64,000 nucleotides of DNA. It comes from Escherichia phage LQ5. The notes beneath the pieces are model-generated. The model worked only from the letters and a program-made list of their open reading frames with translations, had not been told where the DNA came from and did not search any database. Below, piece after piece: positions 5,173 to 60,027 of the stretch. The stretch lies in sequence record OR677401; one strand, written 5' to 3'. The position numbers and the translations under genes were made by a program. Position 1 is the first letter of the stretch. The number at the start of each line of letters is the position of its first letter.

Positions 5173-5246
5173 GGCCCTGTAGCTCAATTGGTTAGAGCAT
5201 CCGGCTCATAACTGGCAGGTTTCCGGTTCAAGTCCGGATGGGGCCA
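5173..5246 (+). tRNA. tRNA with CAT anticodon (Met-type gene; probably the AUA-reading Ile tRNA as in T4); no encoded CCA
   Basis: Hand-folded cloverleaf: acceptor GGCCCTG/TGGGGCC, D stem GCTC/GAGC, anticodon loop CTCATAA, T arm TCCGG-TTCAAGT-CCGGA. Confidence 0.75.
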
Positions 5247-5287: not shown

Positions 5288-5953
5288 ATGTTCCATTACA
5301 CTTATAAAATAACAAACAAAATTAATAATAAAATCTATATAGGTGCCCATTCAACCGAAAATTTGAATGATGCATATTTTGGTTCTGGTAAACTCTTAAA
5401 AAAGGCCCAAGCCAAATATGGTATAGAAAATTTCTCTAAAGAAATATTAGAGTTCTTTGACGATAAAACCTCTATGTTTGAGTCAGAAAAGAATATTGTG
5501 ACTGAAGAGTTTTTAAAGCGCCCTGATGTTTATAATTTGAAATTAGGTGGTGAAGGTGGTTGGGACCATTTAAACACTGAAGAATATTTGGATAAAAAGA
5601 AAGAAGCTTCCTTAAAAGGAGTTGCCGCTTTTAAAACCAGATTTGAGAACGACCCAGACCTTAAAGAAAAATATCGTAAAATGGGTTCAGAAAAGTTTAA
5701 ACAACTTTGGGATAATCCTAAGTATAGAGAGAAATTTTCAAATACTAAATCTTTCTTGGGTAAGACCCATTCAGATGAAACCATAAATAAAATGAAAGAA
5801 TCTCACGCCAGAAATAAACATCAACAAGGTGAAAATAATTCCGGATACGGAAAAATGTGGATTCATTCTTTAGAAGAAAAAGTTTCTAAACGTATTAACA
5901 AAACGGATATTATTCCTGAAGGTTGGAATAAAGGCCGTAAAATAAAATTTTGA
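5288..5953 (+). CDS. GIY-YIG homing endonuclease (SegB-like) within the tRNA cluster
   Basis: N-terminal YTYKITNKINNKIYIGAH motif; Lys-rich NUMOD-like C-terminus; lies between the two tRNA genes as T4 segB does. Confidence 0.75.
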   Translation: MFHYTYKITNKINNKIYIGAHSTENLNDAYFGSGKLLKKAQAKYGIENFSKEILEFFDDKTSMFESEKNIVTEEFLKRPDVYNLKLGGEGGWDHLNTEEYLDKKKEASLKGVAAFKTRFENDPDLKEKYRKMGSEKFKQLWDNPKYREKFSNTKSFLGKTHSDETINKMKESHARNKHQQGENNSGYGKMWIHSLEEKVSKRINKTDIIPEGWNKGRKIKF

Positions 5954-5958
5954 ATTAC

Positions 5959-6033
5959 GTCCCGCTGGTGTAATGGATAGCATACGATCCTTCTAAGTTT
6001 GCGGTCCTGGTTCGATCCCAGGGTGGGATACCA
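5959..6033 (+). tRNA. tRNA-Arg (anticodon TCT), CCA encoded
   Basis: Hand-folded: acceptor GTCCCGC/GTGGGAT, anticodon loop CTTCTAA, T arm CCTGG-TTCGATC-CCAGG, 3' ACCA. Confidence 0.8.
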
Positions 6034-6271
6034 AATGAAGACTATTATATAGTCAAGCCGTCGTATGAAGACTGATTACCAGCATTCACCGGCGCAACAA
6101 ACAAGAAACCGGGTCGCTACCGGTAAGTCGTCGGACTGAAGTTCCCTGAATAAGACCCGACTTTAAGGCGTACATGAGTTGACCTCTTAAAGTCCCTTAT
6201 CTCACAGCTGAAACGGCGCACCGAACACTTGCCTAGCAGGTGGAACCCCGACAAGGTTACCCTAGGTTAAA
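6034..6271 (+). ncRNA. candidate stable small RNA(s) downstream of tRNA-Arg (cf. T4 species 1/2 RNAs)
   Basis: ~240 nt with no plausible + strand ORF, several local hairpins (e.g. ACCGG-gtcgcta-CCGGT), ends at an intrinsic terminator. Confidence 0.3.
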
Positions 6272-6299
6272 GGCCCTTCCGAAAGGTTGGGCCTTTTTT
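6272..6299 (+). terminator. intrinsic terminator GGCCC-(12 nt)-GGGCC + T6
   Basis: Hairpin followed by T-run; identical copy at 6897-6925. Confidence 0.7.
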
Positions 6300-6300
6300 G

Positions 6301-6308
6301 TATAAATA
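6301..6308 (+). promoter_or_regulatory. T4-type late promoter TATAAATA
   Basis: Exact TATAAATA about 28 nt upstream of ORF 6337. Confidence 0.45.
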
Positions 6309-6336
6309 TGTAAGTTAAACTAACCTAGGAAATAAT

Positions 6337-6891
6337 ATGAAACTTTTAAAATATTTGAGTTGGGTACTGTTGGTTCCACTGGATTTTATCTCTATGGTTC
6401 TGGCTGTTATCCTTGCACCATTTGTGGTTCCTTTCCACAATAAAAAGACAGGTAAATTACCGTACGGGTTTGATTGGATGATGACATACGATAATCCAAT
6501 TGACGGTGACAAAGGTCATATTAAACGTTGGGCTAAAATCAGGAAAATGCCAGGTGGTGTTTATCTCCAGAGAGTAGCTTGGCTATGGCGAAATAAAGCT
6601 TATAACTTTGCTTATCATAAACTTGGACGCGATTGTAGTTCGGAATTCCATTATCGTGGTAATCCTGACGTAGAATCAGGTTCTCCTGATAAAGCTCATC
6701 ATGGGTGGCTATGGATGTGGAATGACGACGCCTGGGGTGTATTTGCTTCAGTTCCTTATCTTAAGGTTGGTGGAATCACATTTTACCTTCGAGTGTACTG
6801 TGGCTGGAAGCTTAAAAGTCTTTTGTCTCGTAAAATCCCTAAGGCTATGTTAGCCTTCCACATAAACCCATTCCGGTTCTACAAGAACTGA
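6337..6891 (+). CDS. hypothetical protein with N-terminal transmembrane segment
   Basis: 184-aa ORF flanked on both sides by the same 28-nt terminator hairpin. Confidence 0.6.
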   Translation: MKLLKYLSWVLLVPLDFISMVLAVILAPFVVPFHNKKTGKLPYGFDWMMTYDNPIDGDKGHIKRWAKIRKMPGGVYLQRVAWLWRNKAYNFAYHKLGRDCSSEFHYRGNPDVESGSPDKAHHGWLWMWNDDAWGVFASVPYLKVGGITFYLRVYCGWKLKSLLSRKIPKAMLAFHINPFRFYKN

Positions 6892-6896
6892 TTCTA

Positions 6897-6925
6897 GGCC
6901 CTTCCGAAAGGTTGGGCCTTTTTTT
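6897..6925 (+). terminator. intrinsic terminator, duplicate of 6272-6299
   Basis: GGCCC-ttccgaaaggtt-GGGCC + T7. Confidence 0.7.
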
Positions 6926-24256: not shown

Positions 24257-25263
24257 GAACAGTTATGAAAGGCTACTTCGGTAGCCACCTTTATGGAACA
24301 AGTACTCCAGAATCTGATGTTGATTTTAAAGAAATCTTTGTTCCACATCCGCGTGATATTCTGTTAGGTACGGCTATGAACCATACCAACCTGAATACGA
24401 ATAACACTGCTTCCAAAAACACTAAAGATGATGTTGACCACGAGCTTTACAGTCTGAAATATTTCTTTAAACTGGCTGCTGAAGGCGAAACCGTTGCTCT
24501 GGATATGCTCCACACTCCACCTGAAATGGTGGTTAAATCTGATTTACCTGATGTATGGAAATTTATCCAAGACAATCGTTCACGGTTCTATACAACCAAC
24601 ATGAAAGCCTATTTAGGGTACGTCCGTAAGCAAGCTTCTAAATATGGTGTTAAAGGTTCTCGTCTGGCTGCTCTGCGTGGTGTACTGGCAATCGTTAACC
24701 AGATTCCTGAACAGTGGGTTGACTATCAAGAAGGAATCCCTGATAGACTTCGTCGTACTAAGGTAGAAGATATCAAACACAGACTCCCTGAAAATGAGTT
24801 CTGTGAATGGGTATTCCATAACCATGAGAAAACAGGCCCTCAAACGTTCTATACTGTTCTAGGACGTAAGTACCAAACTACTTTGTCTTTAATCGAGCTC
24901 AAGCAATCTCTGAATAAGCTTGATGCTGAATATGGCGAACGTGCTCGTAAGGCTGAAGCTAATGAAGGTATCGATTGGAAAGCTCTGAGCCATGCTTATC
25001 GGGCTGGATATCAATTGTTGGAAATCTACCAAACAGGCGACCTGGTATTCCCATTGCGCGAAGCCTCTATCATTAAGCTGATTAAGGCCGGTGAACTTCC
25101 ATTTAAAGAGGTCCAAGAACTTCTTGAAGACACTGTTGACCTGGTTGAAGTCCTGGCCCTGCAAGCCGCTAAGAACGGTATGCCTGCTAAGGTAGATATG
25201 AAGTTCTGGGACAAGTTTGTTGAAGAGGTATACCTTGACAACCACAACTCTTATTATCGATAA
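24253..25263 (+). CDS. Pol-beta-superfamily nucleotidyltransferase with large C-terminal helical domain
   Basis: N-terminal GS-x3-G-x5-SDVD motif (GSHLYGTSTPESDVDF); 336 aa. Confidence 0.6.
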   Translation: MRTVMKGYFGSHLYGTSTPESDVDFKEIFVPHPRDILLGTAMNHTNLNTNNTASKNTKDDVDHELYSLKYFFKLAAEGETVALDMLHTPPEMVVKSDLPDVWKFIQDNRSRFYTTNMKAYLGYVRKQASKYGVKGSRLAALRGVLAIVNQIPEQWVDYQEGIPDRLRRTKVEDIKHRLPENEFCEWVFHNHEKTGPQTFYTVLGRKYQTTLSLIELKQSLNKLDAEYGERARKAEANEGIDWKALSHAYRAGYQLLEIYQTGDLVFPLREASIIKLIKAGELPFKEVQELLEDTVDLVEVLALQAAKNGMPAKVDMKFWDKFVEEVYLDNHNSYYR

Positions 25264-45770: not shown

Positions 45771-48482
45771 ATGCAAGAATTCTATTTGACAGTCGAACAA
45801 ATCGGTGATAATATTCTCGAACGTTACATCGATAAAAATGGTAACGAACGTAGTCGTGAAGTTCCATACAAGCCTACAATGTTTATGCATGCTAATCCAG
45901 AGCAAGCCGTAAAATACATTGATATCTATGGTAAGGGTTGTGTTAAGAAAGAATTCGACTCTATGCGTGATGCATCCCAATGGATGAAACGTATGGATGA
46001 TATGGGCCTCGAAGCCCTGGGTATGGACGACTATAAATTAGCCTATTTGTCTGATACCTATCGTAAAGAAATCAAATATGATTCTTCTAAGATTCGTATT
46101 GCTAACTTCGACATCGAGGTAACATCTCCTGATGGATTCCCTGAACCAGCTCAGGCTAAACATCCTATCGATGCCATTACCCACTACGACTCGATTGACG
46201 ATAAATTCTATGTATTCGACCTTTTAGTTTCGCCTTATGGTACTGTTGAAGAGTGGTCGATTAAAATCGCTGAGAAACTCCAAGACGAAGGTGGTGACGA
46301 AGTTCCACAGGAAATCATTGACAAAATCGTTTATCTTCCGTTTAATTCTGAAGAAGAAATGATGCTTGAGTACTTGAATTTCTGGCAACAGAAAACTCCT
46401 GTGATTTTGACTGGATGGAACGTTGAGTCGTTTGACGTACCGTACGTTTATAACCGTCTGAAAAATCTGTTCGGTGAGAACACTGCTAAGCGATTAAGCC
46501 CACATCGTAAAACTCGTGTTAAAGTTATTGAGAACATGTACGGTGCTCGTGAAATCATTACATTGTTCGGTATCTCTGTTCTGGATTATATCGACCTCTA
46601 TAAAAAATTCAGCTTCACCAACCAGCCTTCTTATTCTCTGGATTATGTTTCTGAATATGAATTGAAAGTGGGTAAGTTGAAATATGATGGTCCAATCTCT
46701 AAGTTACGTGAGACGAACCACCAACGATATATTTCCTATAACATTATCGACGTATATCGTGTAGTGCAGATTGATATGAAGCGTCAGTTCATTCTTCTGA
46801 GTTTGGACATGGGTTATTATGCCAAGATGCAGATTCAGTCGGTGTTCAGTCCAATTAAGACTTGGGACGCTATTATCTTTAATAGCCTTAAAGAGCAAGG
46901 CAAGGTAATTCCACAAGCTCGTTCACACGTGGTTCAACCTTATCCCGGTGCTTTCGTTAAGGAACCTATTCCTAACGCTTACAAATATGTAATGAGTTTC
47001 GACCTTACATCTCTGTACCCGAGTATCATTCGACAAGTGAATATAAGCCCAGAGACCATCGCAGGGACATTCGCTAACGCACCGATACATGAATATATTG
47101 CCGGAACAGCTCCGCGTCCTAGCGACGTCTACAGTTGCTCTCCTAACGGCATGATGTACTATAAAGACCGCGATGGTGTGATTCCTACAGAAATCACCAA
47201 GGTGTTCTTACAACGTAAAGAACATAAAGGTTATATGCTTGCAGCTCAACGTAATGGTGAGTTAATTAAAGAAGCATTAGAAAATCCTAATCTCTCGGTT
47301 GATAGTCCACTGGATATCGATTATCGTTTTGACTTCTCTGACGAAATCAAAGCCAAGATTAAAACGCTGTCAGCACCTTCTTTAAGAGAAATGTTGTTCA
47401 GAGCTGAACGTACCGAAGTTGCAGGTATGACTGCTCAGATTAACCGTAAGTTGCTTATCAACTCCCTTTATGGTGCACTTGGTAACGTATGGTTCCGTTA
47501 TTACGACCTCAGGAACGCAACTGCAATCACATTGTTTGGTCAAATGGCCCTCCAATGGATTGAACGTAAGGTTAACGAATATCTGAATAGCGTGTGTAAG
47601 ACTGAAAACCAGAAGTTCGTGCTCTATGGTGATACTGACTCCATTTATGTTAAGGCGGATGCAATCATCAATAAAGTAGGCGAAGACAAATTCCGTGATA
47701 CTAACCACTGGGTTGACTTCTTAGATAAATTTGCACGTGAACGTATGGAACCGGCTATTGATGCAGGCTTCCGTGAGATGTGCGAGTACATGAACAACAA
47801 ACAGCACTTGATGTTCATGGACCGAGAAGCTATCGCAGGTCCTCCACTTGGTTCTAAAGGTCTTGGTGGATTCTGGACAGGTAAGAAACGTTATGCACTG
47901 AACGTTTGGGACATGGAAGGTACTCGTTATGCCGAACCGCACTTGAAAATCATGGGTCTCGAAACCCAGAAATCAAGTACACCTAAAGCAGTTCAGAAAG
48001 CTCTGAAAGAATGTATCCGTCGTATGCTTCAGGAAGGCGAGGCCTCTTTGCAAGAATATTTCAAACAGTTTAATAAGGAATTTAACGAACTAAACTATGT
48101 AAGCATTGCAGCAGTATCCAGTGCTAACAACATCGAGAAATATAATGAAGGTGGATTCCCGGGTTCTAAATGTCCATACCACATCAAAGGTTGCTTAGCT
48201 TACATGCGTGCTTCTGCAGGTGATTTGACTATGCCTCGTATCGTTGATGGTGAAAAGGTATATGTACTGCCACTTAAAGAAGGCAACCCGTTTGGTGAAG
48301 CTTGTATGGCATGGCCGTCAGGTATTGAACTTCCGGTTCAGATTCGTGACCAAGTCCTCCGTTGGATGGACTACAACGTACTGTTCCAAAAGACCTTTAT
48401 CAAACCTCTGACCGGTTTTACTGAGTCTGCTAAAATCGACTACGAGAAAAAAGCAACATTATTTGATATGTTCGACTTTTAA
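45771..48482 (+). CDS. 43: DNA polymerase gp43 (family B)
   Basis: 903 aa, collinear with recalled T4/RB69 gp43 incl. exonuclease FDIEVT and polymerase YGDTDS motifs; uninterrupted. Confidence 0.97.
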   Translation: MQEFYLTVEQIGDNILERYIDKNGNERSREVPYKPTMFMHANPEQAVKYIDIYGKGCVKKEFDSMRDASQWMKRMDDMGLEALGMDDYKLAYLSDTYRKEIKYDSSKIRIANFDIEVTSPDGFPEPAQAKHPIDAITHYDSIDDKFYVFDLLVSPYGTVEEWSIKIAEKLQDEGGDEVPQEIIDKIVYLPFNSEEEMMLEYLNFWQQKTPVILTGWNVESFDVPYVYNRLKNLFGENTAKRLSPHRKTRVKVIENMYGAREIITLFGISVLDYIDLYKKFSFTNQPSYSLDYVSEYELKVGKLKYDGPISKLRETNHQRYISYNIIDVYRVVQIDMKRQFILLSLDMGYYAKMQIQSVFSPIKTWDAIIFNSLKEQGKVIPQARSHVVQPYPGAFVKEPIPNAYKYVMSFDLTSLYPSIIRQVNISPETIAGTFANAPIHEYIAGTAPRPSDVYSCSPNGMMYYKDRDGVIPTEITKVFLQRKEHKGYMLAAQRNGELIKEALENPNLSVDSPLDIDYRFDFSDEIKAKIKTLSAPSLREMLFRAERTEVAGMTAQINRKLLINSLYGALGNVWFRYYDLRNATAITLFGQMALQWIERKVNEYLNSVCKTENQKFVLYGDTDSIYVKADAIINKVGEDKFRDTNHWVDFLDKFARERMEPAIDAGFREMCEYMNNKQHLMFMDREAIAGPPLGSKGLGGFWTGKKRYALNVWDMEGTRYAEPHLKIMGLETQKSSTPKAVQKALKECIRRMLQEGEASLQEYFKQFNKEFNELNYVSIAAVSSANNIEKYNEGGFPGSKCPYHIKGCLAYMRASAGDLTMPRIVDGEKVYVLPLKEGNPFGEACMAWPSGIELPVQIRDQVLRWMDYNVLFQKTFIKPLTGFTESAKIDYEKKATLFDMFDF

Positions 48483-58998: not shown

Positions 58999-60027
58999 AT
59001 GTCATATGTCGATAGAGAATTTGCTGTACGTGCCTTGAATTACCAACCTAAATTCAGACAAGTAACCGGTAGTGATTTTAAATTAAACTGCCGTTGTCGT
59101 GTATGTGGCGACTCCCTAAAAGATGAAAACAAAGCTCGTTTTTGGGCCTATCCGGCCAATGACGGCTCCGTAATGCTGCACTGTTTTAACTGTGACTATT
59201 CAGCAGGAATTAAGAAGTATCTATACGAATATGAGCCTGATTTATATCGAGAATATATTCTTGAGAAACATAAAGAGCAATCGTTCGGGAGACAAGCTGC
59301 ACCTAAGGTGGAGATATCAGAAAAGATTAAAGCCAAGATGCCTGTCATCGAAAAGCTTAATTTCTGTGAACGTCTGGATAGAATGCCAAAGGACCATCCT
59401 ATTATCAAATATGTAACACTACGTTGCATTCCTGAAAACAAATGGAATCGCTTATGGTTTACTAAAGAATGGCCGGCATTGGTGAACTCTGTCAATCCAG
59501 GGACCTATTCTAAAGAAATGCCTGAGCCTCGTTTGGTTATTCCAATTTTCAATAAGAATAAACAAATTGAAAGTTTTCAGGGTCGAGCCTTACGTAAAGA
59601 TGCTCCACAAAAATATATTACAATAAAAGCTCATGACCAAGCTACAAAAATATATGGAATGGATACAGTTGACGAACGTCAGTTGGTGTGGGTAATGGAA
59701 GGCCCTATTGACTCTTTGTTTGTTCCGAATGCAATAGCAATTACTGGCGGGTCGTTGGACTTGGCTATGGTTCCATGTAAAGAAACTCGTGCCTGGGTAA
59801 TGGACAATGAACCCCGCCATCCTGACACAATTAAGCGTATGCAACGATTAGTTGATGCTGGCGAAAGGGTTCTATTCTGGGACAAGGCTCCATGGCCTTC
59901 TAAAGATATAAATGATATGATTATGAAAGATAAAGCTGATATAAATGATGTACTGGCATATATGAAAGCTAATATAGCCCAAGGTTTAATGGCAAAAATG
60001 AGACTTTCAAAATATTCTAAAATTTAG
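58999..60027 (+). CDS. 61: DNA primase gp61
   Basis: 342 aa; zinc ribbon CRCRVCGD ... CFNC, and PRLVIPI, EGPIDSLF, DNEPRHPDTIKRM blocks matching recalled T4 gp61. Confidence 0.92.
   Translation: MSYVDREFAVRALNYQPKFRQVTGSDFKLNCRCRVCGDSLKDENKARFWAYPANDGSVMLHCFNCDYSAGIKKYLYEYEPDLYREYILEKHKEQSFGRQAAPKVEISEKIKAKMPVIEKLNFCERLDRMPKDHPIIKYVTLRCIPENKWNRLWFTKEWPALVNSVNPGTYSKEMPEPRLVIPIFNKNKQIESFQGRALRKDAPQKYITIKAHDQATKIYGMDTVDERQLVWVMEGPIDSLFVPNAIAITGGSLDLAMVPCKETRAWVMDNEPRHPDTIKRMQRLVDAGERVLFWDKAPWPSKDINDMIMKDKADINDVLAYMKANIAQGLMAKMRLSKYSKI

Follow-up and report, generated by a model that had tools for sequence, protein, structure and literature searches.

A homologue of T4 rnaD, without rnaC, downstream of tRNA-Arg in a Dhakavirus phage

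Stable RNAs in the tRNA cluster of T4

Phage T4 encodes two stable RNAs, rnaC and rnaD, in its tRNA cluster; they have been known for fifty years and were among the first RNAs to be sequenced. The T4 precursor of species 2 and species 1 RNA is processed by RNase E, RNase P and RNase III, and T4 mutants in which the tRNA region is deleted still grow on laboratory hosts. In the T4 genome (NC_000866), rnaD (species 2 RNA) is 119 nt long (71171..71053) and is annotated as misc_RNA; the order of elements is segB, tRNA-Arg, rnaD, rnaC (139 nt) and terminator. A single T4 precursor of ~1.75 kb is reported to cover the tRNAs, segB and the species I and II RNAs, and to stop after species I (PMC2330249). 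A multi-omics study of 2022 assigns RNAC and RNAD to the late RNAs and reports Northern-blot validation, with RNAC as the sole riboprobe target described (PMC9697503). No function has been assigned to either RNA in the literature searched (PMC3014915). The one functional hint that the literature gave dates from 2025: a T4-like phage (BW1) grown on E. coli ECOR34 acquired one shared SNP, mapped to rnaD, in three of three lines, and the virulence index (RBG) rose from 0.17 to 0.98 in the same adaptation (PMC12685909). As estimated from the coordinates in that paper, the SNP lies about 73 nt from the 5' end of rnaD, in its variable apex; it suggests a host-specific role, and it could also act in cis or be standing variation.

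We consider here the corresponding locus of a T4-like phage of the genus Dhakavirus, in a 64-kb stretch of DNA that was analysed as a whole and is called the window below. The finding is real and largely already known: rnaD is present without rnaC in a T4-like phage. It is no new kind of element but a further member of a known RNA family, with lineage-specific traits that a few dozen sequenced phages have in common, and the value of the comparison lies in the experimental handles that it gives. These are a covariation-supported structure for an RNA family missing from Rfam, an extension of that family to further genera of Tevenvirinae by covariance-model search, a conserved core that carries three unrelated apex versions, natural rnaC-less lineages that amount to ready-made knock-outs, and a lineage that carries an additional mini-element resembling rnaD. 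Combined with the adaptive SNP already published, these handles define simple experiments that could finally assign rnaD a function, and they would correct the many genome records that place hypothetical proteins over rnaD.

The rnaD homologue and its conserved structure

In the window, tRNA-Met (5173-5246, + strand; ARAGORN and Rfam) is separated from tRNA-Arg by a gene for a segB-like GIY-YIG homing endonuclease of 221 aa (5288-5953), whose protein sequence shows 76% identity to T4 SegB. The tRNA-Arg, with anticodon UCU (5959-6033, + strand; ARAGORN; 46.5 bits with the Rfam tRNA model), has an encoded CCA ending at 6033 and is identical to T4 tRNA-Arg at 74 of 75 nt. This upstream neighbour is probably co-transcribed with the region that follows it (6034-6271), and the next gene downstream (6337-6891) encodes a DUF7338 protein. 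The 6034-6271 region matches 748 phage records, T4-like without exception, with Escherichia phage AnYang (Dhakavirus) as the best match (98.6%).

An earlier sequence-only reading had described this region as free of any plausible ORF, rich in hairpins and equivalent in position to the small-RNA genes of T4, and it proved right on these points. The ORFs that overlap the region are 21-45 aa long, the longest (45 aa) being on the minus strand with a TTG start and the longest on the + strand having 24 aa, and the stop-free runs inside it extend to 49 codons at most. The stretch 6034-6300 folds at -83.1 kcal/mol (z = -3.1), a stability reached by none of 200 shuffles, and five hairpins are predicted, at 6040-6054, 6057-6095, 6108-6124, 6127-6221 and 6226-6242. 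In both genomes, segB, tRNA-Arg, a small-RNA region and a homologous terminator follow one another. The G+C content of 6034-6271 is 48%, compared with 39% window-wide, which corresponds to the 99.8th percentile among all 238-nt segments; the GC maximum of the whole 64 kb begins at 6056. The only other 238-nt segments that are equally GC-rich lie at 24932-25171, 47730-47971 and 59660-59898. At the gathering threshold, the two tRNAs alone are found by Rfam in the window, and within 6034-6300 there is no match to Rfam models (hammerhead, YrlA/Y RNA, riboswitches and the rest) at E up to 10 and none with ARAGORN. Rfam contains a family for neither rnaC nor rnaD, by model searches of the window and of the T4 RNAs.

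BLAST, alignments, a covariance model and the consensus structure all identify the segment 6101-6222 on the + strand as the counterpart of T4 rnaD (species 2 RNA) in this Dhakavirus phage, homologous to it in sequence and structure. The suggestion that the T4 pair of stable RNAs is encoded here therefore holds for one member: in alignment with T4, rnaD is recovered at 94% identity over its 5' 52 nt and 89% over its 3' 27 nt, with an unrelated middle, whereas rnaC is unmatched in the window. Covariance folding, also proposed earlier as a check, gave a fold that is backed by compensatory changes. The model used (R1) was built from an alignment (A3) of 27 distinct homologues and scores 126 bits on 6101-6222 (E 2e-31); no second significant copy of rnaD was found in the window with it. 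By homology to the RNAs expressed in T4, the locus would give rise to a discrete stable transcript.

Covariation supports a fold of two hairpins for rnaD, a short one on the 5' side and then a long, irregular one. All of its elements are on the + strand. A 7-nt leader starts at 6101 and is followed by the hairpin H1, which has a 5-bp stem (6108-6112/6120-6124) and the loop GUCGCUA. The long hairpin is closed by the 7-bp helix P2 (6127-6133/6214-6221), which includes a conserved U-G pair; above it lie an internal loop, with GACUGA (6134-6139) opposite GAAA (6210-6213), the 4-bp helix P3 (6140-6143/6206-6209), a CCC bulge (6144-6146), the 8-bp helix P4 (6147-6154/6196-6204) and the variable apical hairpin (6155-6195). 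The AAGUCGUCG/CGGCGC helix and the UCCCUGA/UCAC internal-loop region make up a conserved core, and the apex is freely replaceable.

The copies in T4 and in the window occupy the same strand and the same place after segB and tRNA-Arg, and H1, P2, P3, P4 and the internal loops are alike in both. They differ by compensatory changes in P3 (A-U for U-A) and in P4 (A-U for G-C), and the apex in the window is of the type found in JS98 and VR25, unrelated in sequence to the apex of T4. The flanks differ as well. The CCA of tRNA-Arg is 1 nt from rnaD in T4 and is followed by a 67-nt insert in the window, and on the 3' side rnaD is followed by rnaC in T4, compared with a 3' hairpin directly in the window.

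For alignment A3, homologues were gathered from phage records, IMG/VR and metagenomes, and chance matches from pattern scans of viral and metagenome contigs were removed by requiring the H1 motif. RNAalifold and per-sequence folding concur on the consensus structure. Across the 27 sequences, 97.5% of cells are paired, compared with 30-50% when the partners are slid, and compensatory changes are seen at five pairs; the alignment has a covariation score of 0.141, shuffled alignments have one of 0.069 +/- 0.007, and none of 500 shuffles reaches the observed value. It is important to note that the structure rests on covariation because the thermodynamic signal of rnaD alone is weak (z -1.2), and stability was for this reason discarded as evidence. 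The invariant G-U pairs are consistent with an RNA read from the + strand; in an RNA of the minus strand they would turn into A-C mismatches.

An rnaD-like sequence is present in 734 phage records. Its apex occurs in three unrelated versions (T4-type, JS98/window-type and IME341-type), each of which folds as a hairpin. The apex versions and the variants of the flanking helix appear in mosaic combinations, which points to recombination within the rnaD gene. Model R1 also detects divergent homologues in Moonvirus KM16 (E 6e-9), Moonvirus NM4.3 (E 5e-6), Karamvirus KaAlpha (E 3e-6) and Kanagawavirus IME523 (E 0.005); the last is the weakest of the four, and the other three are significant. On their loci the hits lie at 549-653 (L065), 461-564 (L066), 1039-1140 (L067) and 1163-1264 (L064). 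In the divergent Moonvirus, Karamvirus and Kanagawavirus cases, rnaD is always within a tRNA cluster and rnaC is not adjacent; for example, about 850 nt separate the two genes in KM16. When KM16, NM4.3 and KaAlpha are added to A3, 12 of 24 pairs are compensatory and no shuffle out of 500 matches this, in an alignment that was fitted to the model and is thereby biased towards the structure. The distant homologues keep the helices and the motifs AAGUCGUC, UCCCUG, UCA(C/A)A and GGCGC. The sequences of the internal loops, which are invariant in close genera, change in these phages, and this makes a single protein-binding site common to all of them less plausible.

The annotation of this locus varies among relatives. 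Few GenBank records of relatives annotate rnaC or rnaD, and in many of them, such as those of CLB_P2, AR1, G50 and JS09, a hypothetical protein is annotated over rnaD. The record of AnYang has no annotated tRNA genes in the 5.4-kb stretch examined. In two T4-like contigs (L018 and L061), rnaD is followed by ...CACC(T/C)TTTTA(T/C)GGAGT, which replaces rnaC or the usual 3' block.

Several other identities for the RNA were considered and rejected. A hammerhead ribozyme, to which CUGA...GAAAC bears some likeness, is excluded as there is no match to an Rfam hammerhead at E up to 10, helix I is missing, and the position equivalent to U7 is base-paired and covarying. A kink-turn or loop-E motif at GACUGA/GAAA is a misfit in strand arrangement by inspection, and the loops differ in distant homologues. 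ARAGORN and Rfam find nothing that would make rnaD tRNA-like or Y-RNA-like. A host-derived sequence or host mimicry was set aside after a BLAST search against 5,426 E. coli genomes gave no match.

The insert, the rnaC position and the terminator

Between tRNA-Arg and rnaD lies a lineage-specific insert of 67 nt (6034-6100, + strand), which alignment shows to be missing in T4 and T6. Only 26 phage records contain it, with 98.5-100% identity, and all of those checked are Dhakavirus phages with a T4-type tRNA-Arg. The insert is predicted to form two hairpins (6040-6054 and 6057-6095) followed by an A/C-rich tail, and its fold has an energy of -16.4 kcal/mol (z -3.06). Within it, the 9-nt sequence ATGAAGACT is directly repeated, at 6035 and 6065.

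The insert resembles rnaD in its arrangement. It mirrors rnaD in having an AAUGA-type leader, a hairpin, AAG(C/U)CGUCG, GACUGA, UCAC and CGGCGCA(A/C)CAA, of which AAGYCGUCG, GACUGA, UCAC and CGGCGCAMCAA are collinear matches between the two, and its predicted closing helix equals P2 pair for pair, the U-G pair included. A local alignment of the insert with rnaD gives z 3.8 (reached by 6 of 3000 shuffles) when scored for long gaps, and z 1.6-3.0 (by up to 228 of 3000) under other schemes. Model R1 scores 8.2 bits on the insert (E 2.9). The broader model R2 scores 12.6 bits (E 0.21 window-wide), its best match after rnaD itself, next to a 12.2-bit match elsewhere in the window; the R2 match to the insert spans the model from end to end with the middle deleted. 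The alignment shuffles and both models are thus suggestive and not significant, and we do not regard the insert as an established duplicate. Judged by its sequence, it may be an internally deleted copy of rnaD, an unproven origin towards which we lean slightly.

The junction between tRNA-Arg and rnaD differs among relatives, and at least four layouts exist within Dhakavirus. In JS10 and SHP1, a tRNA-Arg of another type is followed by rnaD, and rnaC is lacking. In the window and in AnYang, the order is segB, T4-type tRNA-Arg, insert and rnaD, again without rnaC. QL01, read from tRNA-Arg onward, has the T4-type tRNA-Arg, the insert, rnaD and rnaC. In 04086, the T4-type tRNA-Arg comes 5 nt after tRNA-Met, with segB not between them, and is followed by the insert, rnaD and rnaC. 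Outside these layouts, a gene of ~115 codons lies between tRNA-Arg and rnaD in G50 and in Mosigvirus phages, in which rnaD is conserved. The presence of inserts in several layouts marks the tRNA-Arg/rnaD junction as a recurrent insertion point. The tRNA-Arg of the window, part of the segB/tRNA-Arg segment 5288-6033, differs from that of JS10 and SHP1, which lack segB. A T4-like tRNA-Arg beside segB fits co-conversion of flanking DNA during homing.

On the 3' side, T4 rnaC has no BLAST match in the 64-kb window (E 1e-3, word size 7), nor is rnaC homology, including the tRNA-like T arm GGTTCGAATCC, found there. Alignment to T4, T6 and QL01 places the junction at the position of T4 rnaC at 6223-6225 (+ strand). 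The window reads ...GGCGCACC-GAA directly into CACTTGCC, which in T4 starts 4 nt beyond the end of rnaC. The segment that is missing between GAA and CACTTGCC, made up of a spacer, the 139-nt rnaC and CAAA, amounts to about 146 nt. The body of rnaC is gone, but the 3' flank that it has in T4 (CACTTGCC...GGAACCCCGACAAGG and the terminator) is retained in the window at 6226-6299. Across phage records rnaC is common, being present in 748 of them and, in 681, at least 95% identical (95-100%) to that of T4. The contiguous rnaC-less junction occurs in about two dozen of the records listed, including JS98, JS10, IME08, AnYang, CLB_P2, VR5 and MX01.

The retained flank begins with a conserved 3' block (6226-6256, + strand), in which the hairpin CACUUGC-CUA-GCAGGUG (6226-6242) is followed by GAACCCCGACAAGG. 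The block sits just downstream of rnaC in T4 and is nearly invariant in all 31 readable loci, with rnaC present or not, so that there is too little variation for a covariation test. An intrinsic terminator of the tRNA/small-RNA unit follows on the + strand (6269-6299), as judged by its fold and by its homology to the terminator after T4 rnaC. It has an outer stem of 8 bp (6269-6276/6289-6296), an inner CC-GAAA-GG stem and a U6 run to 6299, and a simple terminator scanner misses it because the outer loop is larger than 8 nt. The sequence-only reading had also predicted such a terminator, but within 6034-6271; the terminator is real and starts at the end of that interval instead of lying inside it.

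In T4 rnaC (L004 1909-2047), GGTTCGAATCC agrees with the core of the site that SegB recognises, GGTTCRANTCC (PMC2330249). The same RNA gives a weak match to a tRNA-Sec-like covariance model (E 0.9) by way of an acceptor-like stem and the T arm. A link between the loss of rnaC and self-cleavage by SegB was considered and rejected: by inspection, the T arm of tRNA-Met still fits GGTTCRANTCC, and JS10, with no segB between its tRNA genes, is likewise without rnaC.

Proposed precursor processing, possible functions and the adjoining gene

By analogy with T4, a single precursor very probably carries the stretch 6034-6299 together with tRNA-Met, segB and tRNA-Arg and terminates at 6269-6299. RNase P would cut this precursor at the 5' end of the tRNA, and cuts of the RNase E type would fall just 3' of the CCA and in the A-rich linker at ~6090-6107. 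Trimming would then be halted by H1 and P2, leaving a stable RNA of ~120 nt. Since the loss of rnaC has also removed the cleavage site on its 5' side, the 3' end of this RNA would be made at the GAA/CAC linker, or rnaD would stay fused; in the alternative case, rnaD would be joined to the 3' hairpin and the terminator in an RNA of ~200 nt. The insert might appear as a separate RNA of ~65 nt or as a 5' extension of rnaD (~190 nt). An rnaD homologue processed from a T4-like precursor is overall the best explanation of the locus, and we give it a probability of about 0.85.

A comparable case is known from the host. The 3' external transcribed spacer of the E. coli glyW-cysT-leuZ operon yields stable fragments that arise from processing of a tRNA precursor and end at the operon terminator. 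The spacer RNAs and rnaD (the latter by our proposal) are both stable precursor fragments from the end of an operon. However, the two are unrelated in sequence, and rnaD, which is situated inward of the terminator hairpin, has a conserved fold that is much more elaborate.

What such an RNA does is a separate matter. In rnaD, the core is conserved, changes in the helices are compensated and the apex can be replaced. This pattern would suit an RNA whose core is the site of recognition, probably for a protein. We tentatively propose that rnaD could act in trans as a protein-binding RNA by means of this core and modulate the efficiency of infection in a host-specific manner, and that it is no base-pairing regulator; this is a possibility to work from and falls short of a probability. 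The main alternative, possible though we are inclined to doubt it, is that the region acts purely in cis within the tRNA operon, guiding RNase cleavage and shielding the tRNA-Arg precursor from 3' exonucleases, with the fragments as by-products. Such a role would agree with the location of rnaD homologues, which is always within tRNA clusters and usually directly after a tRNA, with the near invariance of the 3' hairpin, linker and terminator, and with the clean loss of rnaC that some phages tolerate; in addition, fifty years have brought no trans function to light (PMC3014915). Against it, rnaD is conserved in G50 and Mosigvirus even where the ~115-codon gene parts it from tRNA-Arg, the gap of ~850 nt between rnaD and rnaC in KM16 is hard to reconcile with it, and a mere spacer would have no need of a fold that 12 covarying pairs preserve in seven genera. 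The adaptive rnaD SNP likewise points to a phenotype, although a cis effect could produce one.

Other explanations give the RNA more specialised tasks. One of them extends the protein-binding proposal: rnaD would be a modular host-interaction RNA, in which a conserved protein-binding core carries a recombining hypervariable apex that determines how well the phage grows on a given host, for instance through evasion or titration of a defence factor. We consider this unlikely at present; if it were true, the phage of the window would combine a particular apex with a tandem, internally deleted second copy at 6034-6100 that serves as an additional decoy, and would do without rnaC. Less likely still is that rnaD, or the trailer 6226-6299, is a base-pairing regulator or sponge like the leuZ spacer, reaching its targets through the apex or through the single-stranded GAACCCCGACAAGG. 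The trailer does have the general shape of an Hfq-dependent sRNA (a hairpin on the 5' side, then conserved single-stranded sequence, then a terminator that ends in a U-tail), and a variable apex could suit a target-matching module, but the nucleotides of the apex are mostly buried in a stable hairpin, and matches of at least ~22 nt to E. coli are found in none of the 5,426 genomes. That the region works as a tRNA mimic or decoy, diverting anticodon nucleases of the host or other defences aimed at tRNAs, is very improbable. The setting in a tRNA cluster would suit it, as phage tRNAs can neutralise defences (PMC13096335), and the 5-bp stem and 7-nt loop of H1 resemble an anticodon or T arm; T4 rnaC, moreover, is weakly tRNA-like (tRNA-Sec model, E 0.9). 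However, neither ARAGORN nor the Rfam tRNA models, even at E up to 10, find a match in 6034-6300, the H1 loop GUCGCUA is without the T-loop A58 and purine-37 signatures, and the tRNA-like partner, rnaC, is the very RNA that the window lacks. Finally, that the region encodes small proteins, as many GenBank annotations imply, is hardly credible. Automated hypothetical-protein annotations do cover the homologous stretch in many records, and the window has ORFs of 21-45 aa, but these ORFs are without conserved frames, the apex versions differ by non-multiples of three (118 to 125 nt in total), substitutions come as compensating helix pairs, and T4 rnaD was sequenced as an RNA and carries a misc_RNA annotation.

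Downstream of the unit, the 29-nt terminator sequence AGGCCCTTCCGAAAGGTTGGGCCTTTTTT is exactly duplicated at 6271-6299 and 6896-6924, on the two sides of the DUF7338 gene. With exact repeats on either side, this gene looks like a cassette bracketed by direct repeats. The T4 late-promoter consensus TATAAATA is seen directly 3' of the terminator. In a read-through transcript, the 9-nt arms CCTAGGTTA and TAACCTAGG pair and reach the AGGA ribosome-binding site of the DUF7338 gene; the promoter and the two arms occupy 6261-6269, 6301-6308 and 6321-6329. The read-through RNA folds at -38.7 kcal/mol (z -3.9), and an RNA that begins after the late promoter is predicted to be unstructured. The logic of arm pairing and late promoter is the same as in the T4 genes e, soc and 49 (PMC3014915), and the pairing arms are retained, with one G-U pair, in JS10-type phages.
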